Shown here: positions 8,733 to 54,327 of the stretch, piece by piece
How the letters are laid out: each line of letters opens with the position of its first letter
Numbering within the stretch: the stretch's first letter is position 1
Source of the DNA: Dehalococcoidia bacterium
GTDB lineage: Bacteria > Chloroflexota > Dehalococcoidia > UBA2979
Reading direction: 5' to 3'
DNA length: 64,000 bases
Assembly (NCBI GenBank): GCA_965204835.1
Contig: OZ242017.1
Location: 451,842-515,841, forward strand
The notes under the pieces: generated by a model
What the model was told of the DNA's origin: nothing
The model's database searches: none
Seen by the model: only the letters and a program-made list of their open reading frames with translations
Program-made: the position numbers and the translations under genes

Positions 8733-8975
8733 CTAGAGCCGGTCCTCCAACCTGGGGAACGCGCGGATCGCTGCGCTGATCGCATCGGCCTCCGGCAGGC
8801 CGTCGAGGTCGAGGCCCGTGCTGACCGCCAGCAGTTCCACGCCCACCGGCTCGCCTGCCTCGTCGTAGTCGACGACGCGACGCCAGTCCCCGGCGTTGCG
8901 CGACCGCAACTGCCCGTCGGGCTCCCGGAGCGAGACGTAGATGGCGTCGGCCTCGGGGTCGTAGCGGACTTGCAT
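8733..8975 (-). CDS. DUF2283 family small protein
   Basis: 80 aa beginning MQVRYDPEADAIYVSLREPDG. A paralog lies at 54427..54672. It sits 23 nt downstream of the HigA-like gene on the same strand. Confidence 0.6.
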   Translation of the reverse strand: MQVRYDPEADAIYVSLREPDGQLRSRNAGDWRRVVDYDEAGEPVGVELLAVSTGLDLDGLPEADAISAAIRAFPRLEDRL

Positions 8976-8998
8976 GGTGCGTCGCGGCTTGCCGCTGG

Positions 8999-9280: not shown

Positions 9281-9363
9281 CGCCACGATGGCGCCTCCCA
9301 GACCAGTCTCAGCAGCCGCGAGGCGAGTGTCCAACGACGATCGGAACGGCGTCGCCCGGCCGC

Positions 9364-18914: not shown

Positions 18915-20231
18915 CTACGGGATCGAGGGGTCGTAGTCCATCCCGGCGTGCTCCGTATCGACGAAGTGCTCGTACTCCTCGTCGGAGTAGCCGAGCAACT
19001 CCTTGTAGACGTACTCGTTGTCCTCGCCCAGGCGCGGGGCGGCGTGGCGCAGCCGGTTGGGGGTGCGCTCGGCGCTCCACAGCACGCCGGGGTACTCGTG
19101 GGCGCCCGCCTCGGGGTGCTCGAGGGTCTGGAAGTACTCGCGCTCGCGCAGGTGAGGGTCGGAGTAGGCGTCGGCCTCGTTGAGGATCGCGCCCGCTGCG
19201 ACGCCCGCCGCCTGCAGCTGCTGCATGGCCTCGACCGGGTCCTGGAAGATCGACCAGGTCAGGATCTCCGTGTCGGCCTCGTCGTGGTGGGCGCGACGCG
19301 CCTCGGCGGTTGCGAAGCGCTCATCCGCGGCGAGGTCGTCGCGGCCCATGACGCCGCAGAGCGCGCGCCACTCCTCGTCGGTCCCGATGCTGATCGAGAG
19401 CCAGCGGTCCTCGCCGGCGCAGGGGTAGACGCCCTGCGGCGCGTAGACGAGGTCGCGGTTGCCGCGGTAGCCGCTGAGCCGGCCGTTCATCGAGTAGTCG
19501 AGGATGTACTCGCCGAGGTAGCCGGTGAAGTTCTCGGCGGTCGCGCACTCCAGCTGGACGCCCTCGCCGGTGCGGCGGCGGTGACGCAGCCCGGCCATGA
19601 ACGCCATCGCGCCCGACACCCCGGAGGCGGGGTCGGCGAGCAGGCTCGTGCCGCTCTCGTCGGCGAGCGCGCCGGGGTAGCCGAACACCGAGTAGTGCCC
19701 GGACACCGCCTCCATGTGGCTGCCGAAGGTGCGGTACGCGCGGTACGGCCCGGTCAGGCCGAACGCGGGCAGGCGCACGAGGATGAACCGCGGGTTGATC
19801 TCCGAGATCCGCTCCCACGAGACGCCCGCGCGGTCCATGGTGTTCGGCGCGTTGTTCTCGACGAGGCCGTCGGAGACCTTGAGCAGCCGCTCGAAGACCT
19901 CCTGCCCCTCGGGGCGGGTGAGGTCCATGGTGACGGAGCGCTTGTTGCGCGCGTGGACGTTGAACAGCGCGGCGCGGTTCCATGGCCGGTCGCCCGGCTC
20001 ATGGTCCGGGTAGCCGCCCACGCCCCCCTGGCGCACCAGCTCCGGGCTCGGCCGCGCGAGGCCGCCACGGGTCGTCGAGGGGAAGAACTTCGTCGACTCG
20101 ACGCGGATCACCTCGGCGCCCCACTCGGAGAGCAGCTGGGTCGCGTACGGGCCGGCCCACACGACGGTGAAGTCGAGGATGCGGATGCCTTCGAGGGGGA
20201 GGCGCTTGCCGGAGCCGTTCCCGGTGGTCAT
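18915..20231 (-). CDS. CoA transferase, family III (CaiB/BaiF)
   Basis: 438 aa. Its start overlaps the upstream CoA-transferase stop (ATGA). Homologous to the C-terminal half of the fused gene at 42518..45043. Confidence 0.85.
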   Translation of the reverse strand: MTTGNGSGKRLPLEGIRILDFTVVWAGPYATQLLSEWGAEVIRVESTKFFPSTTRGGLARPSPELVRQGGVGGYPDHEPGDRPWNRAALFNVHARNKRSVTMDLTRPEGQEVFERLLKVSDGLVENNAPNTMDRAGVSWERISEINPRFILVRLPAFGLTGPYRAYRTFGSHMEAVSGHYSVFGYPGALADESGTSLLADPASGVSGAMAFMAGLRHRRRTGEGVQLECATAENFTGYLGEYILDYSMNGRLSGYRGNRDLVYAPQGVYPCAGEDRWLSISIGTDEEWRALCGVMGRDDLAADERFATAEARRAHHDEADTEILTWSIFQDPVEAMQQLQAAGVAAGAILNEADAYSDPHLREREYFQTLEHPEAGAHEYPGVLWSAERTPNRLRHAAPRLGEDNEYVYKELLGYSDEEYEHFVDTEHAGMDYDPSIP

Positions 20232-21451
20232 GACACCGCCCCCGACCCGCGCAGCTCGGCGATCGCGGCGGCGTCGAGGCCGAGCGTCTCGCCGAGGATC
20301 TCGTCGGTGTGCTCGCCCAGCAGCGGGGCTCGCTGCCGTGGTGGGGGCGGCCACTCGTGCGCGCTCGAGCGGTACGTGCGGCCCGCGTAGGTCTGGGGGC
20401 CGGTGGTCGGGTGGTCGATGGTCTGGAAGAAGGCGCGCTCGCTGAAGTGCGGGTCGGTCAGCAGCTCGGAGATGGTGTTCACGGGCCCTCCGTAGACGCC
20501 GGCGTCCTCGACGGCCTGGCGGATCTCGCGCTTCGAGTGGCTCAGCATCCACTCGCCGACAAGCGCCTGGAACTGCGCCATCGGCTCCTCCTGGCCCCGC
20601 CACGCGGGGTCGAGCCAGTTGGGATCCTCGAGGAGCTCGGGGTGGCCGATCATCTCGGCCATCGCGGGCCAGCGCGGGCCGACGACGGTGGTGAAGAAGA
20701 AGCCGTCGTCGCCGGTCGGCCAGATGCCGGAGCCGGGCGTCTGGCCGGCGGGCGGGCGGCCCGACGTCTCGCCGGTGTACTGGTAGTTGAGCAGGCTGGT
20801 CGTGCGACGGTCGATGAGCCCCATGAACGTCTCGAAGAAGTTGACGTCCAGGTGGTCGCCCTCGCCGCTGGCGTCGGCGCCCCAGAGCGCGATGTTCGTC
20901 GCCGCCGCGGCGGTCGCGCCGACCTGGTAGGCGGGGGTGTGGCCCGCCGTCTTGAGCGGCTCGCGGTCCGGGCTGCCCGTGTAGAGCATCGGGCCGCCCA
21001 TGCCCCAGATCGTGAGCTCGGAGCCCTTCCAGTCGCGGTACGGCCCGCTCTGCCCGTAGTTGCTGATCGAGGTCACGACGATCGCCGGGTTCACGGCACT
21101 CAGCGCCTCGTACCCCAGCCCGAGGTCGTCGAGGGTGCCGGGGCTGAAGTTCTCGATCACCACGTCGGCCCACCCGGCGAGCCGCAGCACGGTCTCGCGG
21201 CCGCCCTCGGACGCGAGGTCGATGGCGATCGAGCGCTTGTTGGTGTTGAGGTGCAGGAACAGCGCGGAGCGCTCGATGCCCGGCTCGTCCTCGAAGAACG
21301 GCGGCATGAGGCGCGCGGGGTCGCCCTCGCCGGGGCGCTCGACCTTCACGATGTCCGCGCCGTAGTCGCCGAGCACGCGCGTGCAGTAGGGGCCGGCGAC
21401 GTGCCAGCTCAGGTCGAGCACGCGCACATCCGAAAGCGGGAGGTCCACCAT
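20228..21451 (-). CDS. CoA transferase, family III (CaiB/BaiF)
   Basis: 407 aa. GGAG is 7 nt before the ATG. Homologous to the N-terminal half of the fused gene at 42518..45043. Confidence 0.85.
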   Translation of the reverse strand: MVDLPLSDVRVLDLSWHVAGPYCTRVLGDYGADIVKVERPGEGDPARLMPPFFEDEPGIERSALFLHLNTNKRSIAIDLASEGGRETVLRLAGWADVVIENFSPGTLDDLGLGYEALSAVNPAIVVTSISNYGQSGPYRDWKGSELTIWGMGGPMLYTGSPDREPLKTAGHTPAYQVGATAAAATNIALWGADASGEGDHLDVNFFETFMGLIDRRTTSLLNYQYTGETSGRPPAGQTPGSGIWPTGDDGFFFTTVVGPRWPAMAEMIGHPELLEDPNWLDPAWRGQEEPMAQFQALVGEWMLSHSKREIRQAVEDAGVYGGPVNTISELLTDPHFSERAFFQTIDHPTTGPQTYAGRTYRSSAHEWPPPPRQRAPLLGEHTDEILGETLGLDAAAIAELRGSGAVS

Positions 21452-21859: not shown

Positions 21860-22213
21860 ATGCGGGTCAAGCTCGACGAGAACCTGCCGGTCCAGCTCAA
21901 GGCCCTATTCACTGAGTCCGGCCATGACGCGGCGACGGTCGTCGACGAGGGTTTGGGTGGAGCGCACGACGCGGCGATCGCGTCGGCCTGCATCACCGAA
22001 GAACGCGTGTTGATCACGCTGGACCTGGATTTCGCAGATATACGGACGTACCCGCCGACCGCGCACCCCGGCATCGTCGTGTTCCGGCTCCCGAGGGCGG
22101 ATCGCGACGCTGTCCTGAACGTTGACGCCGTCCTGCTTGAACGGCTGGGAGAGTCATCCCCGGAGGGTCAGCTCTGGATCGTCGAAGACTCACGGATCCG
22201 AATCCGGGAGTGA
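21860..22213 (+). CDS. DUF5615 (PIN-like) domain protein, putative toxin partner of DUF433
   Basis: 117 aa beginning MRVKLDENLP and containing ITLDLDF. Starts 9 nt after the DUF433 stop. Confidence 0.7.
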   Translation: MRVKLDENLPVQLKALFTESGHDAATVVDEGLGGAHDAAIASACITEERVLITLDLDFADIRTYPPTAHPGIVVFRLPRADRDAVLNVDAVLLERLGESSPEGQLWIVEDSRIRIRE

Positions 22214-32069: not shown

Positions 32070-33383
32070 CTAGTCGGGGGTGGCGCTCCAGATGGTGAAG
32101 TCGCCGCCCTGAGGCATCGGACCACCGGAGATGCCGACGTCGGCCGGAACCCGGATCTGGCGGTCACCCGCGCGGCCCTGGATCTGCTGGATCGTGTCCG
32201 TGTGCATCCAGATGCGCGTGCGGCCACCACCCTGGTTGCCGCCACTGGGCGACACGGGCTTGTCCGACGTGATGCTGATGTCACCCGCGTAGAGGTCGAG
32301 TGCCTCGCCGCGACCGATCCCCGCGAAGCCCAGACCCTCGATGAAGTAGTTGTGGAAGGTCGTGAAACCCTCGTACATGTTCTCGAAGGAGAGGTCGTCG
32401 GCGGTGATGCCGGCGCCGTCGAGCATCTTGCGGCCGGTGGAGTCGGTGGACGCCTCGGCGTTGTCCAGGCCCTGGGTCAGACCGAACTTCGGGCGCGTGG
32501 TCCCGTGGTTCATGATGTAGACCGGCTTCTGGGCCATGTCCTGAGCGCGCTCGGACGTCGTGAAGACGTAGGCCACCGCGACGTGGATGGGCATGTCGTG
32601 GTCGAAGAGGTTCATCGGCTCGACGATCCAGCGAGCGTTGACGTAGTCCTCAACGGTCACCTCGTCGGGGCGGTGCTGTGCGAAGAAGCCCTCAGGGAAC
32701 ATGAGGCCGTTCTTCTTCTCTTCGACGATGAACGGCGCCATCATGTCGTGGGTCTTGCCGTACTTCGCCATGTACTCCTGGAAGGTCCAGCCGTCGCCGG
32801 TGGCGGCGCTGACGCCCCAGGGGTTCCGCCACACGGCCGCGCCCTCAACCAGCGGACGCGCGTTGGCGCCGCCCTGGTAGTAGCGGCCGGGGAAGTTGTG
32901 CCACGCCTTGAGCAGCACGACCGTGTTCGCGAGCCCGCGGCCGATGGCCTCGGCTGCGACACAGATGACGTTCGACATGCAGCCGGGGCCGTACATCGTG
33001 AAGGACACGTTGTCCAGCTCGGGCATGTTGTTGAGGATCCACTCGGAGCTGAGCGCGGCGATGCCGTCGAACGGCTCGACACCGGGCTGGAACTGCGAGA
33101 TCACGTCCTCGGGGAGCGGGTCGCCCTCGGGCCACCACGCGCCGGTCGTGGTCGAGCGGTCGAGGACGAGTCCGTCCACGTCGCTCGGGCTGATGCCGGC
33201 GTCCTCGATGGCGTTGCGGATCGCGACCATGGCCCACGCGCCGATGCTCGTGCTGGCCTGGCCGTCCCAGCGCCGTGCGGTGGGGGAGTGGCCGATGCCG
33301 ACCGCCGCCACCTTGCCGCGGTGCTCCCAGAGACCCGGGTTTTCCTGCGTCCGGTAGAAGTCCGCAGGTGCGTTTTCAGTCAC
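32070..33383 (-). CDS. thiolase-like (SCP-x/Ltp-type) protein
   Basis: 437 aa with the thiolase fold. GTG start with AGGAAGGG 8 nt upstream. Adjacent to a DUF35 OB-fold partner. Confidence 0.8.
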   Translation of the reverse strand: MTENAPADFYRTQENPGLWEHRGKVAAVGIGHSPTARRWDGQASTSIGAWAMVAIRNAIEDAGISPSDVDGLVLDRSTTTGAWWPEGDPLPEDVISQFQPGVEPFDGIAALSSEWILNNMPELDNVSFTMYGPGCMSNVICVAAEAIGRGLANTVVLLKAWHNFPGRYYQGGANARPLVEGAAVWRNPWGVSAATGDGWTFQEYMAKYGKTHDMMAPFIVEEKKNGLMFPEGFFAQHRPDEVTVEDYVNARWIVEPMNLFDHDMPIHVAVAYVFTTSERAQDMAQKPVYIMNHGTTRPKFGLTQGLDNAEASTDSTGRKMLDGAGITADDLSFENMYEGFTTFHNYFIEGLGFAGIGRGEALDLYAGDISITSDKPVSPSGGNQGGGRTRIWMHTDTIQQIQGRAGDRQIRVPADVGISGGPMPQGGDFTIWSATPD

Positions 33384-33438
33384 TTGCTTTGCCCTTCCTG
33401 GGCGTTACGCCCTGGTGTGCTACCTGTCGATCGGGGAG

Positions 33439-33873
33439 CTAGTCCCCGACGACCTCCCACTCGGCGACCTTCTGGCCGTTGGCCGGAGTCTCCTCGAAGA
33501 CGACCCGAACCTCGGCGCCCATGGGGACCTCGCGGACCGGGGTGCCGGGGAGGTGGGACAGGAACAGCGCGTTCTTGTCTTCCCACAGCTCGATCACGGC
33601 GATGTTGAACGGCTGGTCCTCCTGCAGCGAAGCCACAGGCGTGTCGTACATGGTGACGTACGACTGGATGCGGCCGCGGCCGCTGACCTCGTGCCACTCA
33701 AGGGTTCCGTTCGGGCCGCAGCGGCGGCACTCCTCCGCGGGAGGGTGCTGCAGCATGAGCAGGCCGTCGCGCTCGGTGCACTCGTTGCACCGCTGCACCA
33801 CCAGCCGGCCTTCGTTACATGCGTCGAAGAAGGGCTTGGTCAACTCGTCAGGTACTGGGGATTGCTTCGGCAC
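33439..33873 (-). CDS. Zn-ribbon/OB-fold DUF35 family protein (thiolase-like partner)
   Basis: CNECTERDGLLMLQHPPAEECRRC (Zn ribbon) plus the OB fold. The GTG start follows GGAGGA and lies after tRNA-Arg. The 5' part of ORF 33439..34293 overlaps the tRNA and was rejected. Confidence 0.75.
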   Translation of the reverse strand: MPKQSPVPDELTKPFFDACNEGRLVVQRCNECTERDGLLMLQHPPAEECRRCGPNGTLEWHEVSGRGRIQSYVTMYDTPVASLQEDQPFNIAVIELWEDKNALFLSHLPGTPVREVPMGAEVRVVFEETPANGQKVAEWEVVGD

Positions 33874-34082
33874 GTCTCCTCCATTCCTCCAGCGCCACAC
33901 TCTGGCGCCGGCGATCGCTGCTCGCGTAAGCGGAAGCGACGCGACCGCCCCGCCTGCATGTGTGTTTCTACTCCGTTCCGGCGCAGTTGCCAACACCCCG
34001 CCCACGACCAGCGCCCGGCCCCGGCGCCCCGCTGGGCGTCGGCGCTGTGCGGTGTCAGAGGTTTCGATAGATGTGGGGTGAG

Positions 34083-34159
34083 TGGCGCGCCGGGAAGGAT
34101 TCGAACCCTCGACCGTCAGATCCGAAGTCTGATGCTCTGTCCCCTGAGCTACCGGCGCG
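34083..34159 (-). tRNA. tRNA-Arg (anticodon TCG)
   Basis: Reverse-complement cloverleaf: acceptor GCGCCGG/CCGGCGC, anticodon loop CTTCGGA, T-loop TTCGAAT, CCA. Confidence 0.85.
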
Positions 34160-34341
34160 TTCCGGCTTCCAGATTCCCGCCCCCGGGGCCGCGGTGTCAA
34201 CGCAGGCCGGGCCGGCTGCCCGCGCGGCCCAGGCGGGCAGCGCAGACACGACGAAACGCCGCGCGTACGAGACGCGCGACGCCGTTTCGCCATGATCCGG
34301 TTTGAGCGGAGAGCGCCCGGGCGGGTGTGCTCCTCGGAGGC

Positions 34342-34785
34342 CTAGTAGCGGTCGCGGCCTCCGCCGCCGTAGCCACCACGGCCACCGCCACCGCCGCCGC
34401 CGTAGTCGCCACGACCACCGCCGCCGCCGTAGCCACCTCGGCCACCGCCGCCGCCGTAGTCGCCGCGGCCACCGCCGCCGCCGTAGCCACCACCACCGCC
34501 GCCGCGGTAGCCGCCACCGCCGCCGCCGCCGCGACGGTCCTCGCGGGGGCGCGCCTCGTTGACGCGCAGCTGCCGGCCGCCGAAGGTCTGGCCGTCCAGC
34601 CCCTCGATTGCCTTGCGTCCGTCCTCGTCCGACATCTCGACGAAGCCGAAGCCGCGCGGGCGGCCGGTCTCGCGGTCGGTGGGCAGTGCGCACGACACGA
34701 CTTCGCCGTACTGCGCGAACAGCTCACGCACCTCGTCCTCGGTCGACGAGTAAGGGAGATTTCCTACGTAGATCCTCTGAGCCAA
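34342..34785 (-). CDS. RRM-type RNA-binding protein with Gly/Arg/Tyr-rich C-terminal repeats
   Basis: RNP1-like RGFGFVEM and RNP2-like IYVGNL. C-terminal (GGGGGRG[DG]Y) repeats. TTG start 9 nt after AGGAAG. Confidence 0.7.
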   Translation of the reverse strand: MAQRIYVGNLPYSSTEDEVRELFAQYGEVVSCALPTDRETGRPRGFGFVEMSDEDGRKAIEGLDGQTFGGRQLRVNEARPREDRRGGGGGGGYRGGGGGGYGGGGGRGDYGGGGGRGGYGGGGGRGDYGGGGGGGRGGYGGGGRDRY

Positions 34786-35041
34786 CGTCCACAACTTCCT
34801 GGTCCCGGCACGTCCGGGACTGCTACGCCGGCCTGCTGGCCGGCACTTCCTCGATCGCTCTGACTCCGCGTGGGACGTGTTCTCAGGACGCCTTTGGCGT
34901 GATTCGAGCGCACGGAGGATAGCACGGCTCCGGCTTTGCGTATCCCTCCCGGTGGCACAACTTCGCGCTGATCCTTGACAGCCCGCACGCCGATCGCTAG
35001 TGATGGCCCACGGCCCGGCCTTGCAGCGGGAGGGGGCACAC

Positions 35042-35629
35042 ATGAGCGACACCGACTGGGCGCACGCCGAGGACTGGCAGCAGGCCTGGCAACCGCTCAT
35101 CGACGCCATCGGCACGGACTTCAGCCCGGCGGGCAGGAGCGCCATCGACGAGATCGAGCGGGGCGCCATCCGCAAGTACGTCGAACCGCTCGAGATGGAC
35201 TGCCCGATCTTCGTGGACGAGGCCGTGGCGCGTGAGCACGGCTACGAGCGCATCCCCGCTCCCACCAGCGGCATCTCGCAGACATGGATCGAGACCGGCG
35301 TCTGGACCGCGGACCGCGATCGCGCCTGGCCGACGAACGACCGCGACGCGCCGCCCCCACGGGCGCCCGGGCCCGAGGACGCCATCGAGGTCCCCGCGCC
35401 GCCGACGACCGCGGCCTTCGCGACGGACATCGAGATCGAGTACCACAGGGACGCCTACGTCGGTGACCGGCTCACGAACTCCGGCAACCGGCTCATCTCG
35501 TGCCTGCCGAAGCAGACCTCAGTCGGCCGGGGCGCGTTCCAGATCTTCGAGTCGTACGTACACAACCAGGATGGCGAGCTGATCGCCACCGTGCGCCGCG
35601 GCCTCTACTCGTACGTCCCGTTCGAGTAG
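35042..35629 (+). CDS. MaoC-like hotdog protein (N-terminal-type hydratase subunit)
   Basis: 195 aa. GGGAGGGGG precedes the ATG. It pairs with the downstream MaoC dehydratase. Confidence 0.7.
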   Translation: MSDTDWAHAEDWQQAWQPLIDAIGTDFSPAGRSAIDEIERGAIRKYVEPLEMDCPIFVDEAVAREHGYERIPAPTSGISQTWIETGVWTADRDRAWPTNDRDAPPPRAPGPEDAIEVPAPPTTAAFATDIEIEYHRDAYVGDRLTNSGNRLISCLPKQTSVGRGAFQIFESYVHNQDGELIATVRRGLYSYVPFE

Positions 35630-35678
35630 GGCGCGGTACGGCACACACCCAGCAAGCGGACCAGCGCAGGAGGAACCA

Positions 35679-36119
35679 ATGGCGGACTGGACCAGGCAGC
35701 GGACGTGGGACGAGGTCAACGAGGGCGACGAGCTCGACCCCGTCGAGATCCCGATCACGGTGCATCGACTCGTCGTGGAGGCGGGCGCGAACCGCGACTT
35801 CGCGCAGATCCACCACAACACGGAGGTGGCGCAGGCGCAGGGCGCACCGGAGATGTACGCCAACAACGTCTTCATCCAGGGCTGGTGGGAGCGCTGCACG
35901 CGCGAGTTCATCGGCCTCGACGGGCGGATCAGGAAGGTCGGCCCGTTCCGCATGAAGATCTTCAACGTCGTCGGCGAGACCTCGACGACGAAGGGCCGCG
36001 TCACCCGCAAGTGGGAGGACGACGGCGACCACCTGGTCGAGATCGAGATGTGGACGGAGACGCCGAAGGGCGTCTCAGTCGGCCCGGGCCCGGTGGTGGT
36101 CTCACTCCCGAAGGCGTAG
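35679..36119 (+). CDS. MaoC family (R-specific enoyl-CoA) dehydratase
   Basis: 146 aa hotdog-fold protein. GGAGGA is 4 nt before the ATG. Confidence 0.8.
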   Translation: MADWTRQRTWDEVNEGDELDPVEIPITVHRLVVEAGANRDFAQIHHNTEVAQAQGAPEMYANNVFIQGWWERCTREFIGLDGRIRKVGPFRMKIFNVVGETSTTKGRVTRKWEDDGDHLVEIEMWTETPKGVSVGPGPVVVSLPKA

Positions 36120-36193
36120 CACCACGACCACGGTCGAACGCAGCGAGGGGGCCACACGGCCCCCTCGTCGCGTGGTTGCGCCGTCCCTCCGGC

Positions 36194-36553
36194 TCAAGCC
36201 CGGAGGGCGCCGAGCTTCTCGACAAGCGTGGCCACCCGCGAGAGGTTCCGCTCGACGGTCTCGTGGGGAAGCCATCCCTCGTGGAAGTTCGTGTCGAGAA
36301 CGCTCGCGGACCCCATCAGGCTGACCAACTCCCGGTCACCTGTCTCCCGGGCGATGCGCTCAATCGCAACAAAGAGATCGCGATGGGTGCGATGAGGCCA
36401 ACCGCTGGACTCCGCGAAGGCGATCAGCGTACGTGCCGCGGCATCCCACGCGCGGCCTGAGGCCTGTTGCAGATCACCTGACACGAGACAGTCGCGGGCC
36501 TGAGGTAGCAACGCGTCCGTGTCATCGTCGGGACTGCCCGTGAGAATCCGCAT
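36194..36553 (-). CDS. PaREP1/HEPN-like small helical protein (paralog A)
   Basis: 119 aa with DLQQASGRAWDAAARTL...GWPHRTHRDL. Tandem paralog of 36564..36947. Confidence 0.45.
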   Translation of the reverse strand: MRILTGSPDDDTDALLPQARDCLVSGDLQQASGRAWDAAARTLIAFAESSGWPHRTHRDLFVAIERIARETGDRELVSLMGSASVLDTNFHEGWLPHETVERNLSRVATLVEKLGALRA

Positions 36554-36563
36554 CGAGCGGCGC

Positions 36564-36947
36564 CTACTCCGTAAGAGCGTCCAGCTTCTCGACGAGTTCG
36601 GCCACCTGGGTGAGGTACCGGTCCACGGTTTCGGGCGAGAGCCAGCCCTCATAGAAGTTGATGTGCAGCTGACCCGCCGAACCGAACGCCAGCCCGATGT
36701 CGTTATCGCCCGTCTCCTCGACCAGCCCATCGATCGCCGCGTAGAGGTCTCGGTGGCTCTGGTGGCGCCAGCCGCGCGCGTGCGCGACGGCCTTCACCAT
36801 CTGCGCGGCGGCGCCCCACCCCTTCTCGGAGGCCTGCAGCAGGTCCTCCTCGTCGAGGTACGTGCGGGCGCGCTCGAGGAACTCGTGGCCCGTGGCGTGG
36901 TAGCGCGGCGCGTCCGTCGTCATGGGAGGAGTGTACTCGCGCGGCAC
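36564..36947 (-). CDS. PaREP1/HEPN-like small helical protein (paralog B)
   Basis: 127 aa with LLQASEKGWGAAAQMVKAVAHARGWRHQSHRDL. Start uncertain (GTG at 36947 or an internal ATG). Confidence 0.45.
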   Translation of the reverse strand: MPREYTPPMTTDAPRYHATGHEFLERARTYLDEEDLLQASEKGWGAAAQMVKAVAHARGWRHQSHRDLYAAIDGLVEETGDNDIGLAFGSAGQLHINFYEGWLSPETVDRYLTQVAELVEKLDALTE

Positions 36948-37033
36948 TAGTTGTGCACGCCATCACAAGCAGAGGGAGGGGGCCGCGCAGGCCCCCTCCT
37001 CGTGTGCGCTCGCCCGCGCCCGTGGCGCGAGGG

Positions 37034-38257
37034 TTAGCCGCGCGGAAGGCCGAGCCCGCGCGTGGCGATGATGTTGCGCTGGATCTCCGAGCTGCCCCCG
37101 CCGATGGTGCCGGGGATCGTCGTGATGTAGCGCTGGGTGAACGCGGTCTTCGCCGGCGCGTACTTGTCGTCCTCGTCCCACAGGTTGGCGTACAGCCCGA
37201 AGGTCTTCATCCCGGTCCGCGCCAGCTTCTGGCGCGACTCGGAGATGAACATCTTCGCCGTCGAGGCTTCGTAGTTCGGGATCACCCCCGCGTTCTGCAT
37301 CGAGATGATGCGGAACGAGAAGTTCGCGCCGACGTCGGCCTCCAGGTAGCGGTCGGTGATCTCCCCCCGCACCGAGGGCAGCATCCGCACCTTGTCGGCG
37401 TCCCGGCCGTGCGAGAACTCGATGAGCTGCCCGATCTGGCGGCGCAGCGTCACCGCGCCGCTGATGTTCGAGCGCTCGTAGTCGAGCAGCGTCATGCCGA
37501 CGTACCAGCCGCGGTCGACCTCGCCCAGCACGTTGTCGGCCGGCGTGCGGACGTCCTCGAAGAACGTCTCGTTGAAGCCGTGCTGCCACGCCATGTTGAT
37601 GAGCGGCCGCAGGTTCAGGCCCGGCGTGTGGATGTCGTCGATGAGCAGGAACGAGATGCCGCGGTGCTTGGGCGCGTCCGGGTTGGTGCGGACCAGCGCG
37701 AAGATGGCGTCGGAGTAGTGCGCGTTCGACGTCCAGATCTTCTGGCCGTTGATCACGTACTCGTCGCCGTCGCGGATCGCGCGCGTCTGCAGCGAACCGA
37801 GGTCGGACCCCGCGCCGGGCTCGGAGTAGCCCTGCGCCCACACGGTCTCGCCGGAGAGGATCTTCGGGAGGTACTTGTCCTTCTGCTCCTCGGTGCCGTG
37901 CACGATCATCGTCGGTCCGAGGAGGCTGACGCCGGAGCCGCCGACGATCGGCGCGCCCGCCTCGGCCATCTCCTGGTTGTAGATGAACTGCTCCATGGGA
38001 CTGAGGCCCGCGCCGCCGTACTCCTCCGGCCAGTGCGGGGCGAACCAGCCGCGGTCCGATACCGCGTCGGTCCAGTCCTCGGCGGCGTCCTTGCGTTCGG
38101 CGTCGTCGGAGGCGCGGTCGGCGATCCAGCCGCCCTCGTAGCCTTCCTCGGTGCCCTCGTCGCGCATGCGGCGATAGAGGGCAGGGAGGTGCTCGTCGAT
38201 CAGGGCCTGCACTTCCTGCCGGAATGCGGCCTGCTCAGGTGTGTCGCTCCAGTCCAT
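37034..38257 (-). CDS. acyl-CoA dehydrogenase family protein
   Basis: 407 aa from MDWSDTPEQAAFRQEV. ACAD N, middle and C domains (GGSSEIQRNIIA). AAGGAGGTGA precedes the ATG. Confidence 0.85.
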   Translation of the reverse strand: MDWSDTPEQAAFRQEVQALIDEHLPALYRRMRDEGTEEGYEGGWIADRASDDAERKDAAEDWTDAVSDRGWFAPHWPEEYGGAGLSPMEQFIYNQEMAEAGAPIVGGSGVSLLGPTMIVHGTEEQKDKYLPKILSGETVWAQGYSEPGAGSDLGSLQTRAIRDGDEYVINGQKIWTSNAHYSDAIFALVRTNPDAPKHRGISFLLIDDIHTPGLNLRPLINMAWQHGFNETFFEDVRTPADNVLGEVDRGWYVGMTLLDYERSNISGAVTLRRQIGQLIEFSHGRDADKVRMLPSVRGEITDRYLEADVGANFSFRIISMQNAGVIPNYEASTAKMFISESRQKLARTGMKTFGLYANLWDEDDKYAPAKTAFTQRYITTIPGTIGGGSSEIQRNIIATRGLGLPRG

Positions 38258-38326
38258 GCCTCTCACCTCCTTGCGGTGATGCGAGGAACATAGCACGCGT
38301 TATAGGCGCGGTAGGGACGTGGATCG

Positions 38327-42517: not shown

Positions 42518-45043
42518 ATGACCGACACCATGCCGCTCGACGACGTGCGCGTGCTGGATCTGACGCGCCACGCCGCCGGACCCTTCGCCACACGCCTGCT
42601 CGCCGACTACGGCGCCGACGTGATCAAGATCGAGCCGCCCGAGGGCGACCCCGCCCGACGCCTCCCGCCGTTCATGGGCGACGACCCGGGCCCCGACCGC
42701 AGCGGCATGTTCCTGTTCCTCAACACCAACAAGCGCAGCGTCGTGCTCGACCTCAAGACCGACGAGGGCCGCGACCGCTTCCTCGAACTCGCCCGGGGCG
42801 CCGACGTGGTGGTCGAGAACTTCATGCCGGGCACGCTCGACCGGCTGGGGATCGGCTACGAGACGCTGCGCGAGGCGAACCCGCGGCTCGTGCTCACCTC
42901 GATCTCCAACTTCGGGCAGGACGGGCCGTACCGCGACTGGGCGGGGACGGACCTCACGCTGTACGCGATGGGCGGGCCGATGCTCGCCTCCGGCGAGGCC
43001 AGCTATGAGCCGGTGAAGACCGCCGGGCGCATGACCAGCTACCACACGGGGCTCGTCGGCGCGCTCGCCACCGCCGTGGCCATCCGCGGCGCGGAGCTGC
43101 GCGGCGAGGGCGAGCACGTCGACGTCAACCTCTACGAGACCGCGCTGCACTCGATCGACATCCGGCTCGCGCGGCTGATGATGTACCAGTACACCGGCCA
43201 GTACGTGACGCGGCCGACGCTCGCGGCGGGTGTCGGCAGCGGCGTGTACCCGTGCGCCGACGGCTTCTTCCTGATGTCGAACGGCCCGCAGCGCATCCAC
43301 ACCGCGCTGCGCATGATGGGCTACGAGGACCTCCTCGAGACGCCCGAGTGGTCCACCGTCGAGGCGTGCTCGCATGTCGACCGCATCGACGAGTTCAACG
43401 CGCTGGCCTTCCCGTGGCTGCTCTCGCACACGCGCGCCGAGATCCGCAAGGCGTGCGAGGTACACGGCGTGATGGCCGGACCGATCAACAGCGTCGCCGA
43501 CCTCTTCGAGGACGAGAACTTCCGGTACCGCGAGTTCTTCCAGACCATCGACCACCCGGAGACGGGGCCCCTCGAGTACCCCGGCTACCACTTCCGGCTA
43601 CACCGCCCCGAGGGCGCGATGCCGGAGCGCCGCCGCGCGCCGCTGCTCGGTGAGCACACCGACGAGGTGCTCGCCGAACTGCCGCGCGGACGTCCTACCC
43701 CGGCCGCCACGCCGGGCCGGGGCGCCGGGTGGACCTCGGGCGACCTCCCGCTGAAGGGCGTGCGCATCGTCGACTTCACGGTCGTCCTCGCCGGCCCCTA
43801 CGGCGCGATGCAGCTCGCCGACTGGGGCGCCGAGGTCATCCGCGTCGAGTCGACGCAGCACTTCGCCTCGGCGACGCGGGGACTGCTGGCGCGTCCGCCG
43901 CAGGAGTTCGTCGACGCGATGGCGCAGGCCGGGGCGGGCATCGGCTACCCCGACAACACCGCTGGCGAGCGCCCGTGGAACCGCGGCTCCGTCTTCAACA
44001 GCCACGCCCGCAACAAGCTCTCGATGACCGTCGACCTGACCCGGCCCGAGGGCCAGGAGGTGCTCCACCGGCTGGTCGAGATCTCCGACGGGCTGATGGA
44101 GAACAACCTGCCGCCGAACATCGAGCGGCAGGGGGTGAGCTGGGACGCGCTGTCGGCGGTCAACCCGAACCTCGTGATGGTGCGCATCCCGGCGTTCGGC
44201 ATCGACGGGCCGTACCGCGCCTACCGCACGTACGGGAACCACATGGAGGCGATCGCCGGGCACCCGGCGATCCGCAGCTACCCCGGTCTCAGCCTGGAGT
44301 ACGCGCCGCTCGGGGTGCCCTCGGACGCGGCGTCGGGGATGGGCAACGCGTACGCGTTCATGATGGGGCTGCGCCAGCGCGAGCGGACCGGCAAGGGGCT
44401 GCTCGTCGAGGTCGCGACGGCGGAGAACTTCGTCCCGCTGATCGGCGAGTTCATCATGGACTACTCGATGAACGGCCGGCTGTGGGAGCAGATGGGCAAC
44501 GACCACTGGTGGCTCGCGCCGCACAACGTCTACCGCTGCCGCGGCGACGACGCGTGGGTCACCATCGCCGTCACCAACGAGGCGCAGTGGCCGCTGCTCT
44601 GCGAGGCGATCCGCCGCGAGGACCTCGCCGACGACCCGCGCTTCGCCGACATGGCCGCGCGCTACCAGCACCGCCGTGAGCTCGACGCCATCATCGGCGA
44701 GTGGACCGCGGAGCGGGACGCTCGCTGGGTGGCGCAGCGCCTCCAGTTCGACGGCATCCCCGCGGGCGCCGTGATGTCGGAGGTCGATGCGTACGAGGAC
44801 CGCCACCTCCACGAGCGCGGCTTCTTCCAGGAGATCACGCACCCCGAGGCGGGCACACATCAGCACGTCGGTCCCGCGTGGACGGCGAGCGGCACGCCCC
44901 ACCCGCCGCCGCGCCATGCGCCGCTGCTGGGCCAGGACAACGAGTACGTCTACAAGGAGCTGCTCGGCTTCTCGGACGCCGACTACCGGCGGTTCGAGGA
45001 GATGGGGCACATCGGCGACGAGTTCATCCCCTCGATCCCGTAA
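42518..45043 (+). CDS. tandem-domain (fused) family III CoA transferase (two CaiB/BaiF domains in one 841-aa protein)
   Basis: The N domain starts LDDVRVLDLTRHAAGP. After a linker, the second domain starts LKGVRIVDFTVVLAGPYG. The two halves are paralogous to the separate genes 20228..21451 and 18915..20231. Confidence 0.85.
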   Translation: MTDTMPLDDVRVLDLTRHAAGPFATRLLADYGADVIKIEPPEGDPARRLPPFMGDDPGPDRSGMFLFLNTNKRSVVLDLKTDEGRDRFLELARGADVVVENFMPGTLDRLGIGYETLREANPRLVLTSISNFGQDGPYRDWAGTDLTLYAMGGPMLASGEASYEPVKTAGRMTSYHTGLVGALATAVAIRGAELRGEGEHVDVNLYETALHSIDIRLARLMMYQYTGQYVTRPTLAAGVGSGVYPCADGFFLMSNGPQRIHTALRMMGYEDLLETPEWSTVEACSHVDRIDEFNALAFPWLLSHTRAEIRKACEVHGVMAGPINSVADLFEDENFRYREFFQTIDHPETGPLEYPGYHFRLHRPEGAMPERRRAPLLGEHTDEVLAELPRGRPTPAATPGRGAGWTSGDLPLKGVRIVDFTVVLAGPYGAMQLADWGAEVIRVESTQHFASATRGLLARPPQEFVDAMAQAGAGIGYPDNTAGERPWNRGSVFNSHARNKLSMTVDLTRPEGQEVLHRLVEISDGLMENNLPPNIERQGVSWDALSAVNPNLVMVRIPAFGIDGPYRAYRTYGNHMEAIAGHPAIRSYPGLSLEYAPLGVPSDAASGMGNAYAFMMGLRQRERTGKGLLVEVATAENFVPLIGEFIMDYSMNGRLWEQMGNDHWWLAPHNVYRCRGDDAWVTIAVTNEAQWPLLCEAIRREDLADDPRFADMAARYQHRRELDAIIGEWTAERDARWVAQRLQFDGIPAGAVMSEVDAYEDRHLHERGFFQEITHPEAGTHQHVGPAWTASGTPHPPPRHAPLLGQDNEYVYKELLGFSDADYRRFEEMGHIGDEFIPSIP

Positions 45044-45680: not shown

Positions 45681-48600
45681 ATGGCCGGGGCCGCCCGGTG
45701 GCCCGTCGCTGCCCGCCTGACGGCGGCCGAGTCGGAGTGCGGCGTGATCGCATGGCGCAGCACGGCAGCACGCGGGTCGTTCGCCGACCTCGCGTGCGTC
45801 GGCATCCTGCTCCTCGTGGCAGCGCTCGCGACCGCCTCGCCCGCCAGGTCCGCGGAGTCCGAGAACCTGCTCCCGGACGGGGGCTTCGAGGACGGCGGCG
45901 CCGGGTGGTCGCCGTGGGCCACGAACGCCACGGTCACCGTTGACGGATCGGAGCCCGTCCATGCCGGGGCGGCGGCCGCGCACCTCGTCGCGGACGGGCC
46001 GGGGACCGTCGCGCTCGACTCGCAGTACTGGTGGACGCCGATCGATGAGCTCAAGCCGCTGAGCATGACCATCTGGGTCTACGCCGATGACGCGGGTATC
46101 AGCAACGTCTCCGCGCGCATCGATGCGCTGGACGAGGACGGCGTGGTGCTCGACAGCGCGAGAGGCCTGCCCGGCGTGGGCAGCGGGTGGGTGGAGATCA
46201 CCGCCGGGCCGTTGCAGGCCCCCGCCGGGAGCGCGTACGTGGGCCTCGTGGTGAGCGCCACGGCTGCGACGGCCGGCGCAACACTCCACATCGACTCCGC
46301 GTCCGTCACGGTCGTCAGCGAGGAACCGACGGCGGAGGCGGAGGCGACGGCCACGGCCACGGCGACGGCGACCGCCACGGCGACGGCCACGGCGACGGCC
46401 ACAGCGACCGCCATGCCGACGGCGACCGCCATGCCGACGGCGACCGCCATGCCGACGGCGACCGCCATGCCGACGGCGACCGCCATGCCGACGGCGACCG
46501 CAACGCCAACACCAACCCCCACCCCCACTCCGACTGCAACTGCAACGCCTACCGCGACCGCAACACCCACGGCGACCGCGACCGACGTGCCGGGCCCCAC
46601 GCCCCCGGAGACGGAGACCGCGACCGACGTGCCGGGCCCCACGCCTACGGAGACGGAGACCGCGACCGACGCGCCGGCACCCACGCCCCCGGAGACGGAG
46701 ACCGCGACCGCCGTGCCTGCCCCCGCGCCCCCGGACATGCTCACTCCCGGGCACCTCCTCCCGAACGCCGGCTTCGATCAGGGCACCTCCGGCTGGTCAC
46801 CCGACACAGACGACGTCGTGTTCACCGTCGACGAGAGCGCGCCCGATCGGGAGGGGAACGCCGTCGGTCGCATGACCGCCACCAGGCCCGGGACGACCAA
46901 CGTGGCTTCGCAGTTCTGGCTCACCGAGACGAGCGAGCTCGCCTCGCACACCATGCGGGTCTGGGTGTACGTGGTGGACTCCTCCATGAGCAGGGTGATC
47001 GTGGCGCTCGAGGTGCTCGACGCGGACGGGATCGTGCTCGCAACCGCGATCGCCCCGACAACGATGAGCGCTCGCTGGCAGGAGCTCAGCGTGGGATCGC
47101 TGCACCCGATGGTGGGGGCTCAGCACGTTCGCGCCGTGGTGAGCGGGACGGCTGCATCCGCCGGGGCAACGCTGTACGTCGACGCCGTCGAGGTCATCGC
47201 CACGACGCCGCCCCCGCCGGAGGAGCCACCACCCGAGCCCATCGTGACCGAGCCGCCCGACGCGACCCCGCCGGAGGAGCCACCGCCCCCTCCCACCGTG
47301 GCCGAGCCGCCCGACGAGACCCCGCCGCCCGAGCCACCACCCCCTCCCACCGTGACCGAGCCGCCCGACGAGACCCCGCCCGAGGAGCCACCACCCCCTC
47401 CCACCGTGGCCGAGCCGCCCGACGAGACCCCGCCGGAGCCGCCGCCCGCGCCCACTGCGGCCGCCCCGACCCCGACCCCGACGCCGACGCCCGAGCCACC
47501 ACCCACCACGGTGACGGCCGCGCGTGTGGTCGAACCGGTCACGCCGTCAGTGGCTGGGCCGCCCCCCGTGCAGACCTCGACGCCAACGGCCACGCCAACC
47601 GTGGTCGGCGACCCGGACGGGGCCGGCAACCTGCTCCGCAACGCCGACTTCGAGGCGGCGGGCAGCCTGGCAGCGTGGGGTAGCCGTGGCGGCTCGGCCC
47701 GCGTCGCGACGGACGGTGACGGCTCGCGCACGGCGCAACTGGCGTCCCGTACTTCCGCGACGAAGTGGCTCTACCAGGTTGTCCCCGTGACGCCGGGCGG
47801 GTGGTACGAGGCGGGCGCGCGGCTCGAGGCCCGCGACGAGGCCGAGGCCGCGTTGGTGCGCGTCGCCTGGTACGCGTCGGACGACGCGAGCGGGAGGCAA
47901 CTCTCCACGGTCGACTCGCCTCCCGTGCAGGGAGGAGCCGCGCGCGCGGCTGAGGTCGCGACCGGCGCGGTGCAGGCGCCGCAGTCGGCGCACAGCGCGC
48001 AACTGCGGCTGATGCTCCGCCCGCGAGGCAGCGCGCTCGCAACGCTCGTCGCCGACGACGCCTACCTCGGACCCATCACCGCGCCGCCACCGCCCGCGCC
48101 GACCTCGACGCCCACGCCCACACCCACGGCATCGCCATCGCCGAGCCCGACGCCCACCCCGTCCGCGACGCCCACCCCGACTGCAACCCCGGCGCCGGCG
48201 CCACCGACCCCGACACCCACGCCCGCCCCCACCGCGTCGCCGGAACCCACGCCCACGCCAACGCCGGCGCCGCGGACCGTGCAAGCCTCGACGCCCCCGG
48301 CCGGGAAGGGCGTGACGGTCGCGGAGCCGACGGCCAGTCCTCCCACCGTGGCCGCGGTGGCTCCGCCACCCACCACGGCCTTCGAGATCCCGCTGCGCAT
48401 CACCGCGCTGCTGCCCGACCCCGTGGAGCAGGGCCCCGACGCCCGCTTCGAGTGGGTCGAGCTGACGAACGTCGGCCGCTCGCCGCTACGCATCGGCGGG
48501 TTCGAGCTCCGCGACAACACGGCGACGCTCACGTTGCCGGACATCGAGTTGCCCGCGCGCAGCTCGGTCGTCGTCGCCGGTGCGGAGGCCGAGGTGGGCG

Positions 48601-49130
48601 AGGTCATCACCATCCGGCTCGACTCGGGGCTGTTCAACGGGCTCGCCAACGCCGGCGACCGGCTCGTGCTGCTCACGCGCGAGGGCGCCGTCGTCGACTC
48701 GCTGTCGTGGGGCGACGACACCAGCCGCTACGGCCCGCCCCTCGTGGCGCCGGGCGCAGGGGAGCTGCTCCGGCGGCGCTTCGCCCAGAACGGGGCGCTG
48801 GTCGCGGTGGTCGTCGCCGCTGACGACGCGGCCCCCGTGGACGGCGCCACAGAGGACGACACCACGGTCGCGGCGGCAGCAGCGCCCACCGAGGCAGCGC
48901 CGACCGCGTCGCCCCCCGCACTGGCCGTCGAGGTGGTGACGCGCACGCCGACGCCGTCCGATGCCAGCGCCGCGACGGCAACAGCCACCGAGCCGGCCCC
49001 GGACGAGCGGATGGCCAGCAACGGCGGCAACGGAGTGAACCGCGCCGCGTGGATCGCGCTCGCCTCGATCGCGCTTGGTGCGCTCTCGGGCGTCGGGGCG
49101 TTTCGGCTGCGGGAGCTGCTGAGCGCGTAG
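45681..49130 (+). CDS. large secreted/cell-surface protein: signal peptide, three carbohydrate-binding-module-like (CBM_4_9-like) domains separated by TA/TP/PE-rich linkers, a lamin-tail domain (LTD) and a C-terminal TM anchor
   Basis: Each domain begins NLL(P/R)N(A/G)(G/D)FE..G..GW. LTD signature ARFEWVELTNVG...LANAGDRLVLL...VVDSLSWG. C-terminal AAWIALASIALGALSGVGAFRLRELLSA. Confidence 0.75.
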   Translation: MAGAARWPVAARLTAAESECGVIAWRSTAARGSFADLACVGILLLVAALATASPARSAESENLLPDGGFEDGGAGWSPWATNATVTVDGSEPVHAGAAAAHLVADGPGTVALDSQYWWTPIDELKPLSMTIWVYADDAGISNVSARIDALDEDGVVLDSARGLPGVGSGWVEITAGPLQAPAGSAYVGLVVSATAATAGATLHIDSASVTVVSEEPTAEAEATATATATATATATATATATATAMPTATAMPTATAMPTATAMPTATAMPTATATPTPTPTPTPTATATPTATATPTATATDVPGPTPPETETATDVPGPTPTETETATDAPAPTPPETETATAVPAPAPPDMLTPGHLLPNAGFDQGTSGWSPDTDDVVFTVDESAPDREGNAVGRMTATRPGTTNVASQFWLTETSELASHTMRVWVYVVDSSMSRVIVALEVLDADGIVLATAIAPTTMSARWQELSVGSLHPMVGAQHVRAVVSGTAASAGATLYVDAVEVIATTPPPPEEPPPEPIVTEPPDATPPEEPPPPPTVAEPPDETPPPEPPPPPTVTEPPDETPPEEPPPPPTVAEPPDETPPEPPPAPTAAAPTPTPTPTPEPPPTTVTAARVVEPVTPSVAGPPPVQTSTPTATPTVVGDPDGAGNLLRNADFEAAGSLAAWGSRGGSARVATDGDGSRTAQLASRTSATKWLYQVVPVTPGGWYEAGARLEARDEAEAALVRVAWYASDDASGRQLSTVDSPPVQGGAARAAEVATGAVQAPQSAHSAQLRLMLRPRGSALATLVADDAYLGPITAPPPPAPTSTPTPTPTASPSPSPTPTPSATPTPTATPAPAPPTPTPTPAPTASPEPTPTPTPAPRTVQASTPPAGKGVTVAEPTASPPTVAAVAPPPTTAFEIPLRITALLPDPVEQGPDARFEWVELTNVGRSPLRIGGFELRDNTATLTLPDIELPARSSVVVAGAEAEVGEVITIRLDSGLFNGLANAGDRLVLLTREGAVVDSLSWGDDTSRYGPPLVAPGAGELLRRRFAQNGALVAVVVAADDAAPVDGATEDDTTVAAAAAPTEAAPTASPPALAVEVVTRTPTPSDASAATATATEPAPDERMASNGGNGVNRAAWIALASIALGALSGVGAFRLRELLSA
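46327..46560 (+). repeat. tandem hexamer/18-nt coding repeats (ACGGCG/ACGGCC; 5 x atgccgacggcgaccgcc = MPTATA x5 at 46413..46502)
   Basis: Seen directly inside the surface-protein gene. Confidence 0.8.
46584..46736 (+). repeat. about 3.6 copies of a 42-nt tandem repeat (DVPGPTPPETETAT units)
   Basis: Seen directly. Near-identical units. Confidence 0.8.
47209..47460 (+). repeat. about 4.5 copies of a 54-nt tandem repeat encoding PPEEPPPPPTVAEPPDET units
   Basis: Seen directly. Confidence 0.75.
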
Positions 49131-52989: not shown

Positions 52990-53170
<181 letters not shown>

Positions 53171-53280
53171 TGCAAGCGGCGTCCGCGACGCCACCCACCT
53201 GCGGCATCGTCCACTGCCTGCCCCCTCGCACGACCGGGGGCGCGGCGAAGCGCGTCCCCGCATGTGCTGGGAGGCGCGCC

Positions 53281-54327
53281 ATGACCCACCGATTCCCGAT
53301 CCCGCTGCTGCGACCACTGCTGGTCGTGCTGGCGCTGCTCGCGGCGTCCGCCGTCCTCGCCTGCACCGGCGACGATGACGACGAGGCGGCCTCGACGCCG
53401 CCCGCGCCCACCGCGACGCCGGCCCCGGCGACCGCGACCCCCACCGCGACTGCGACCGCCACCGCGACCGCCACGGCCACGCCGGAGCCCACGCCCACCG
53501 CGCCGCCCGCGTTCCCCGTCACCATCGAGGACTCCGACGGCGTCGAAGTCACCCTCGACGGGCCGCCGCAGCGCATCATCTCCTACTCGCCGGGCGCGAC
53601 CGAGATCGTGTTCGCCGTCGGCGCCGGTGACCGCGTCATCGCGGCCGACGAGTTCTCGTACTACCCGCCCGAGACGGCGGACCTGCCGAAGCTCGCCTAC
53701 TCCAGCCCCGACCCGGAGCCCGCGCTGGCCCTCAATCCGGACCTCGTCATCATGGCCAGCCGCCAGCGCGAGCAGGTCGAGCAGTTCCGCGGCCTCGGCA
53801 TGACGGTGCTCTTCATCGACTCCGGCAACTCGCTCGACGAGGTCTTCGCGACCATCGAGCAGTTCGGCCGCATCACGGGCAACCGCGAGCAGGCCGCCGA
53901 GCTCGTCGCGTCGATGCGCGCGCGCATCGACGCGGTCACGGACGCGATCGCGAGCGTCGAGGAGGGCCCGCGCACGTTCTTCGAGCTGACGGCGGACCTC
54001 TACACCGTCGGGCCGGAGACGTTCGTCGGGAACGTGCTGACGCTGGCGAAGGCGCAGAACGTCGCGACCGGGGCGAGCTCGCCGTTCCCGCAGCTCACCG
54101 CCGAGGCGGTCATCGCCGCCGACCCGGAGGTCGTGCTGCTGGCCGACGGCGATTGGGGCGAGAGCCTGGAGACCGTGTGCGCGCGGCCCGGCTGGGACGC
54201 CACCTCGGCGTGCATCAACGAGCGCGTGCACCCCGTCGACGGCGACCTCACCAGCCGCCCCGGCCCCCGCGTCGTCGAGGGCCTCGAGGAGATCGCCCGC
54301 CTGCTCTACCCCGACCTCTTCCCGTAG
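53281..54327 (+). CDS. periplasmic-binding-protein family lipoprotein (BtuF/FecB-like cobalamin/siderophore SBP)
   Basis: Signal plus lipobox AVLAC, then TGDDDDE and a TA/TP linker. PBP type 2 fold (RIISYSPGATEIVFAVGAGDRVIA). GGGAGG is 6 nt before the ATG. Confidence 0.8.
   Translation: MTHRFPIPLLRPLLVVLALLAASAVLACTGDDDDEAASTPPAPTATPAPATATPTATATATATATATPEPTPTAPPAFPVTIEDSDGVEVTLDGPPQRIISYSPGATEIVFAVGAGDRVIAADEFSYYPPETADLPKLAYSSPDPEPALALNPDLVIMASRQREQVEQFRGLGMTVLFIDSGNSLDEVFATIEQFGRITGNREQAAELVASMRARIDAVTDAIASVEEGPRTFFELTADLYTVGPETFVGNVLTLAKAQNVATGASSPFPQLTAEAVIAADPEVVLLADGDWGESLETVCARPGWDATSACINERVHPVDGDLTSRPGPRVVEGLEEIARLLYPDLFP

Follow-up and report, generated by a model that had tools for sequence, protein, structure and literature searches.

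The 64,000-nucleotide stretch of Dehalococcoidia DNA analysed here (the window) carries, at 42518..45043 on the plus strand, a gene in which two family III coenzyme A (CoA)-transferase domains are joined in a single protein. The open reading frame (ORF) starts with ATG and has no internal stop, and its 841-residue product contains two full-length stretches of the CoA_transf_3 family (PF02515; 638 bits, E 4.6e-192, against a Pfam cut-off of 23.3 bits). An earlier reading made from the sequence alone (the original prediction) had described one 841-residue ORF with two complete CaiB/BaiF-type domains joined by a Pro/Gly linker. The uninterrupted ORF and the two full-length matches bear this out, and a stop between the domains, which had been named as grounds for rejecting the idea, is absent from the reading frame. 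The linker, at about residues 386–409, is a Pro/Gly/Ala-rich stretch that reads AELPRGRPTPAATPGRGAGWTSGD. Across fused relatives it varies from 18 to 51 residues (median 24), is rich in A, P, R, G and S, and forms a gap-rich, low-complexity region of the alignment. The two halves of the protein share 27.7% identity (BLASTP). We refer to the N-terminal domain as A-type and to the C-terminal domain as B-type.

About 22 kb away, on the minus strand, the window holds the same two domain types as separate genes, as had been claimed; we call them split A and split B. Each gives one full-length PF02515 match, with scores of 320 bits for split A and 304 bits for split B. In BLASTP the N half of the fused protein is 51.4% identical to split A over 389 residues (E 1e-139), and the C half is 53.2% identical to split B over 432 residues (E 1e-166). 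Each half therefore matches its own counterpart, in agreement with the original prediction; the similarity survives proper alignment, and both peptides quoted in its support are present in the sequences. The two split genes, proposed to be translationally coupled, do have an overlapping stop and start codon (ATGA). Besides the fused gene and the split pair, no further family III domains were found in the window. The pair represents the same enzyme type in two-gene form and with the same polarity: A lacks, and B has, the Asp discussed below.

Seven NCBIfam equivalog models, covering formyl-CoA transferase, CaiB, the succinate-glutarate, succinyl-CoA:mesaconate and oxalate CoA-transferases and mesaconyl-CoA isomerase, all scored below their cut-offs for the fused, split A and split B proteins (best score 399 bits, against a cut-off of 750). 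A promoter and terminator scan around the fused gene returned nothing meaningful. Table 1 lists the positions of the features discussed here.

Table 1. Features of the window, with positions counted from its first nucleotide.
Feature	Position	Strand	Remarks
Fused two-domain family III CoA-transferase gene	42518..45043	+	Single ORF, 841 residues plus stop, two PF02515 matches
N-terminal A-type domain, residues 1-385	42518..43672	+	Predicted nucleophile-less half; 51% identity to split A; matches 9fn0_A
Inter-domain linker, residues 386-409	43673..43744	+	Low pLDDT; length variable across relatives
C-terminal B-type domain, residues 410-841	43745..45040	+	Predicted catalytic half; 53% identity to split B; matches 9fn0_B
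Codon for Asp145	42950..42952	+	Not the nucleophile; column of Frc Glu140 and CaiB Asn141
Codon for Ser174	43037..43039	+	Putative degenerate site; column of the CaiB/Frc catalytic Asp
Codon for Gly573	44234..44236	+	Frc Glu140 column; Gly/Ala in B-type domains
Codon for Asp603	44324..44326	+	Predicted nucleophile; column of CaiB/Frc D169 and 9fn0_B residue 178
Split A-type subunit gene	20228..21451 (21454 with GTG)	-	407 residues from ATG (408 from a GTG one codon upstream); one PF02515 match
Split B-type subunit gene	18915..20231	-	438 residues; Asp200 is the predicted nucleophile; one PF02515 match
ATGA stop/start overlap of split A and split B	20228..20231	-	4 nucleotides; minus strand reads GTGTCATGACC
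Family 5 solute-binding protein gene	16897..18711	-	SBP_bac_5, E 5e-72; follows split B directly; may share an operon with it (context only)
Thiolase-like ORF	32070..33383	-	CoA-ester group
tRNA-Arg	34083..34158		Interspersed in CoA-ester group
MaoC/hot-dog dehydratase-like ORFs (two)	35000..35629 and 35679..36119	+	CoA-ester group
PaREP1-family ORF	36564..36947	-	Interspersed in CoA-ester group
Acyl-CoA dehydrogenase	37034..38296	-	CoA-ester group

Active-site residues and predicted structure

We aligned all domains with MAFFT, anchoring the alignment on D169 of Escherichia coli CaiB and D169 of Frc, which are catalytic according to the titles of mutant entries in the PDB. A single column contains both of these residues together with D603 of the fused protein, D200 of split B and residue 178 (Asp) of 9fn0_B, chain B of the heteromeric enzyme BbsEF. 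The same column holds Ser174 in the N half of the fused protein, Ala174 in split A and Tyr in 9fn0_A. D603 is invariant in all 109 fused homologues, and position 174 is unconstrained in the same set (Q in 39, G in 22, S in 20, L in 9, E in 7 and T in 6). In 80 loci from species-representative genomes, every A-then-B pair carries the Asp in its second domain or gene; in the first it is usually missing. The GN motif (Frc N244) is kept in 75 of 79 B-type domains and lost in A-type domains; in the C half of the fused protein its Asn is N661, which is invariant among fused homologues.

Because the D603 column is shared with the known nucleophiles and invariant, position 174 is unconstrained and the GN motif is lost from the N half, the alignment points to the N-terminal A-type half as the degenerate site and to the C-terminal B-type half as the catalytic one. 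The original prediction had proposed an asymmetric dimer, possibly with one degenerate active site, and had suggested looking for the catalytic Asp in both halves. The asymmetry is supported: of the two halves only the C half has the predicted nucleophile (D603), as does split B (D200), and its place is taken by Ser174 in the N half and by Ala174 in split A. The accompanying statement that family III enzymes are obligate homodimers was too strong, given that the heteromeric BbsEF and PhtSa/PhtSb are known. The same asymmetry is seen in BbsEF.

The two domain types also differ in the column of Frc E140. A-type domains are always acidic here: the fused protein has Asp145 (D in 59 and E in 50 of the fused homologues) and split A has Glu145. 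The B-type residues are Gly573 in the fused protein (G in 108 and A in 1 of the homologues), Gly170 in split B and Gly in 9fn0_B. Four residues past Gly573, Glu577 (window 44246..44248) is invariant in 109 of 109 fused homologues and is the commonest residue of its column in B-type domains (44 of 79); this column has Asn in 9fn0_B and Gln in E. coli Frc, CaiB and YfdE. The N half retains the Rossmann-type CoA-binding columns (E39, R47, K72 and D96), which are conserved in both domain types.

Two other assignments were considered and rejected. In the first, the catalytic Asp would lie at a 'GYD'-type motif (D145/G573) and the C half would be dead; this is ruled out by the title of PDB entry 9fol, by the residue count and by the alignment anchored on D169 of CaiB and Frc. 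The second, a racemase-like (MCR) reading, fails since neither half has a His-Asp pair in the relevant columns.

Some relatives show variant residue patterns and may be functionally distinct subgroups. Asp occupies the nucleophile column of both halves in three fused proteins (L020, L023 and L025, our handles for individual loci), from Deltaproteobacteria, Spirochaetaceae and an unclassified bacterium known from a metagenome-assembled genome (MAG). The acidic residue of the Frc E140 column is missing from both partners at L057 (Novosphingobium), L059 (Mycobacterium), L065, L076 and L077. The fused protein at L062 (1316..3706) has a different residue combination.

An AlphaFold2 model of the whole 841-residue chain, built on the 109-sequence alignment, has a mean predicted local distance difference test score (pLDDT) of 94.9 and a predicted template modelling score of 0.95. 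Only residues 396–403, in the linker, have a pLDDT below 50. In the model D603 lies at the N-terminus of a long helix (601–624), and Ser174 lies at the equivalent place of helix 172–195. Foldseek comparisons with the PDB ranked BbsEF first, with template modelling (TM) scores of 0.93–0.94 for the C half against chains B/D and 0.84 for the N half against chains A/C. SUGCT, YfdW, Frc, YfdE, Rv3272 and CaiB came next, and the target-normalised TM scores ranged from 0.76 to 0.94 overall.

Sequence searches of the PDB returned 9fn0_B as the best match of the C half (E 4e-48) and 9fn0_A as the best match of split A (E 9e-53). For the N half, 9fn0_A came third (E 3e-48), behind 4ed9 and 10uh. In BLAST the N half scores 167 bits against 9fn0_A versus 132 against 9fn0_B, and the C half scores 177 bits against 9fn0_B versus 67 against 9fn0_A. 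PDB entry 9fol bears the title 'BbsEF, D178-CoA adduct', and counting along the HMMER alignments places an Asp at index 178 of chain B and an Ala at the same index of chain A. No PDB match was longer than 456 residues, and a two-domain member has therefore apparently not been solved.

Proposed arrangement and its alternatives

We consider it likely, with a probability of roughly 80%, that the fused protein is a single-chain form of a heteromeric family III CoA-transferase of the BbsE/BbsF kind. Most likely, its two halves, as diverged paralogues, would wrap around each other like the two chains of an interlocked dimer and make up a monomeric pseudo-heterodimer. Because the sites of such an interlocked arrangement are composite, the single functional site would combine the large domain of the C half, with D603, and the small domain of the N half; catalysis would then take place at only one of the two composite active sites. 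There, the reaction would proceed through an acyl-aspartyl anhydride and an Asp-CoA thioester, both formed on Asp603. The N half retains neither the nucleophile nor the GN-loop motif, yet its conservation equals that of the catalytic half (mean column identity 0.63 versus 0.62 in the alignment of the fused family), which suggests that it probably serves as a small-domain lid and structural partner. At most, the enzyme can be described as a predicted CoA-transferase for an organic acid that is probably imported. From context, we would guess that this acid is activated from succinyl-CoA or a similar donor.

Several points weigh against this arrangement. The retained CoA-binding motifs and the always-acidic position 145 of the N half would seem to exceed the apparent needs of a purely structural partner. 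The assignment of D178 to chain B of BbsEF depends on a residue count in the SEQRES alignment, and we infer the interlocking of the two halves within one chain from a confident model and homology, not from coordinates. Finally, the gene neighbourhoods of the fused and split relatives are not conserved between two fused homologues, two split relatives and the window.

The features of the N half could also be accounted for if the protein were bifunctional, with the C half acting as a CoA-transferase and the N half repurposed. The latter might carry out a second chemistry, such as a DddD-type lyase step or sulfur transfer, or it might bind CoA in a regulatory or non-catalytic manner through its retained motifs and Asp/Glu145. 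Such a role would fit an N half that is conserved as strongly as the C half, whose Rossmann CoA-binding columns are conserved as in B-type domains and whose position 145 is D or E in every A-type domain; moreover, the characterised two-domain enzymes DddD and PtmU4 both exceed plain CoA transfer (PMC6006322; PMC5395668). However, the nucleophile column of A-type domains is unconstrained and their GN motif lost, and the A-type pattern is shared by BbsEF, an enzyme described simply as a CoA-transferase (PMC10818641). An interlocked partner must, in addition, stay conserved for structure alone. We judge a bifunctional protein to be quite improbable. It is tempting to speculate that the conserved Rossmann motifs and the acidic residue 145 of the N half serve a second ligand site, either for a further catalytic step on the CoA ester or for binding the CoA donor at an allosteric or holding site, in a lineage that flipped repeatedly between two chains and one, but this combination seems to us rather unlikely.

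Distribution, evolution and genomic setting

The window protein recurs, identical in sequence, at the head of a cluster of 62 Chloroflexota MAG proteins that go by the name 'CoA transferase'. A protein search returned at least 109 clusters (at 90% identity) of 820–891 residues with the same architecture; where they are named, these come from Dehalococcoidia, Chloroflexota and SAR202. About a third of the 80 loci in species-representative genomes are single fused ORFs, and the rest are adjacent A-then-B genes that often overlap. The original prediction had advised looking for the fusion in related genomes, and on both counts it is present there. The fused architecture extends to Actinomycetota, Deltaproteobacteria, Cupriavidus, Mycobacterium, Variovorax and Rhodococcus. 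In the last two it was seen when plasmids were searched with tblastn, where the matches bear only the generic name 'CoA transferase'. In Chloroflexota as in other phyla, the A-then-B arrangement is common both as a fusion and as separate genes.

Two close relatives, at loci L001 and L005, are 58–64% identical to the fused protein and truly split, each with its own stop, spacer and ATG; identity to the fused protein at L003 is only 43–46%. Close relatives that are split could suggest that the fusion is an artefact, in which a frameshift or assembly error merged two adjacent genes, and a fusion in one genome alone would indeed be suspect. However, the identical 841-residue protein is encoded on several independent contigs within the 62-member cluster, and the same fused architecture recurs in all of the clusters counted above. 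The fusion has, moreover, swapped the A-type C-terminal helix tail, the stop codon, the spacer and the N-terminal leader of the split relatives for the linker, which thus substitutes for the A-type C-terminal helix, with no read-through of that helix. An artefact has next to no chance of being the explanation and can be regarded as effectively refuted.

In a neighbour-joining tree of 74 concatenated A+B pairs, calculated without support values, fused and split forms interleave. Fitch parsimony on this tree requires at least nine changes and places 'split' at the root. Taken at face value, the sequences suggest several independent fusion or fission events. L001 and L005 each hold counterparts to both the split pair and the fused gene of the window, placed in tandem in the order A-B-A'-B'; the window's two loci are therefore old tandem duplicates, one of which was later fused. 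These duplicated sets of split subunits span 5307..10640 at L001 and 5260..10606 at L005; others are found at L019 and L037.

In the window, the fused gene has a divergent alpha/beta hydrolase-like ORF and a tRNA-Arg as its immediate neighbours. SBP_bac_5 genes of the type found downstream of split B, together with ABC permease genes, also adjoin fused homologues in two other genomes. The surroundings of two fused homologues and two split relatives showed no conserved partner from which a substrate could be named. The neighbours at L001 and L005 include genes for an enoyl-CoA hydratase, a short-chain dehydrogenase/reductase and a TauE/SafE-type exporter, and L005 also has a carbonic anhydrase gene.

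The TauE-type exporter and enoyl-CoA hydratase genes near L001 and L005 are among the observations that would fit an orthologue of DddD, a dimethylsulfoniopropionate CoA-transferase/lyase, making dimethyl sulfide. DddD has the same overall architecture, with two CaiB-like domains of about 410–430 residues each (PMC7174347), and it is the top Swiss-Prot match of a subset of CaiB paralogues from SAR202 (Chloroflexota) (PMC5395668). This last match is expected anyway, DddD being the only curated two-domain protein. Among the neighbours scanned at either window locus there is no BCCT transporter (dddT), no dddB/dddC-type dehydrogenase and no LysR regulator (dddR). DddD has been reported as an outgroup to other two-domain enzymes (PMC6006322), and the nearest solved relatives of the window protein are the BbsEF chains. 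Orthology to DddD is not demonstrable, the context and the published descriptions set the two proteins apart, and we hold a DddD function to be very unlikely.

Several other features of the neighbourhood were observed. A group of genes for CoA-ester metabolism lies in 32070..38296, 5–10 kb upstream of the fused gene and not in an operon with it (Table 1). A DUF5615 (PIN-like toxin-type) ORF at 21860..22213 (plus strand) directly adjoins the split pair, and toxin-antitoxin genes flank the fused homologue at L083. A 1149-residue ORF at 45681..49130 (plus strand) encodes a probable surface protein with a hydrophobic N-terminus and a C-terminal membrane anchor. It contains three carbohydrate-binding-like modules of about 150 residues, opening with NLLPNAGFE or NLLRNADFE, as well as long Thr/Ala, Pro/Glu and Pro/Thr low-complexity spacers and a lamin-tail-like segment, and its DNA has a strongly alternating GC skew. 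An LTD-domain gene also lies near the fused homologue at L083.

Elsewhere in the window, a cobalamin riboswitch occupies 53033..53125 (plus strand; 34.3 bits, Rfam gathering score 31.5), a short distance upstream of the ORF at 53167..54327. Two consecutive ORFs in 12801..13892 (minus strand) share an AhpC/TSA (peroxiredoxin) domain between them: the start of the profile falls at the end of 13482..13892, and the rest falls at the start of 12801..13460, where a TPR follows. The divided profile suggests a frameshift in the gene or an error in sequencing.

Comparison with known systems

The fused architecture is real but already known elsewhere, and the window protein is an uncharacterised member of it; no new class of system is opened. 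What the analysis adds is an anatomy for a large, unnamed group of 'CoA transferase' genes that is expanded in Chloroflexota, including SAR202-type and sponge-associated lineages, with a predicted single active site per pseudo-heterodimer and the nucleophile on the second domain or gene. For annotation, the two genes of a split pair would be treated together as a single enzyme, and the fused gene would stand for one catalytic unit and not for two. The switching of an interlocked dimer between split and fused forms is of modest interest for protein evolution and folding; if true, repeated switching between one chain and two would provide a natural test case for the folding of threaded dimers. 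A strongly conserved, nucleophile-less N half that still carries CoA-binding motifs adds modestly to this interest.

The closest solved comparison is with BbsEF, a heteromeric family III enzyme that acts as benzylsuccinate CoA-transferase (PMC10818641) and whose structures 9fn0 and 9fol were released in December 2025. Like the window enzyme, BbsEF has two diverged subunit types, the nucleophile on the B type only and Gly in the Frc E140 column, and each half of the window protein is closer to its own counterpart chain than to the other. The differences are also clear: BbsEF consists of two polypeptides in a reported tetramer whereas the window protein is one chain, identity between them is only 30–33%, and 9fn0_B has Asn in the column of the Glu577 of the window family. 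A bbs-type beta-oxidation operon was not found around either window locus. PhtSa and PhtSb are the expected subunits of an o-phthalate CoA-transferase, for which a BbsEF-like tetramer is predicted. Compared by description, PhtSa/PhtSb and SmtA/SmtB of Chloroflexus have their subunits encoded side by side, and homology to BbsEF has been described for them (they are listed in the supplement of PMC6006322).

Among single-chain proteins, DddD resembles the window protein in that one polypeptide carries both of its CaiB-like domains in tandem, and the domain sizes are similar. Its essential Asp is said to lie in the C-terminal domain. DddD differs in its setting, a ddd operon that also encodes a BCCT transporter and dehydrogenases; such genes are not among the scanned neighbours of the window loci. 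The two CaiB domains of DddD, an enzyme of Marinomonas and Endozoicomonas, occupy residues 1–416 and 439–821 (PMC7174347), and some SAR202 CaiB paralogues match DddD best (Landry et al. 2017; PMC5395668).

Dong et al. 2018 described the two-domain class as CoA-transferase domains in tandem, connected through a linker of low conservation, and counted 2,401 sequences; before that study, DddD was the only member to have been characterised (PMC6006322). Their enzyme PtmU4 is a monomer in solution and needs Asp430 of its C-terminal domain (PMC6006322). It shares with the window protein the tandem domains, the variable linker and a conserved Asp in the C-terminal domain (Asp430 and D603, respectively). 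However, PtmU4 has only about 600 residues and a much reduced N-terminal domain, whereas the window protein has two complete domains. PtmU4 also forms thioacids with sulfur-carrier proteins and is encoded in a natural-product cluster, a context that the window gene lacks.

The homodimeric enzymes Frc/YfdW, CaiB, YfdE, SUGCT and Rv3272 share the fold (TM 0.76–0.92 per half), the Pfam family and the Asp169-type column with the window protein, but they consist of two identical chains with two equivalent sites. Overall, the window protein fits the two-domain class by its architecture and polarity, and the BbsEF type by its sequence and fold.

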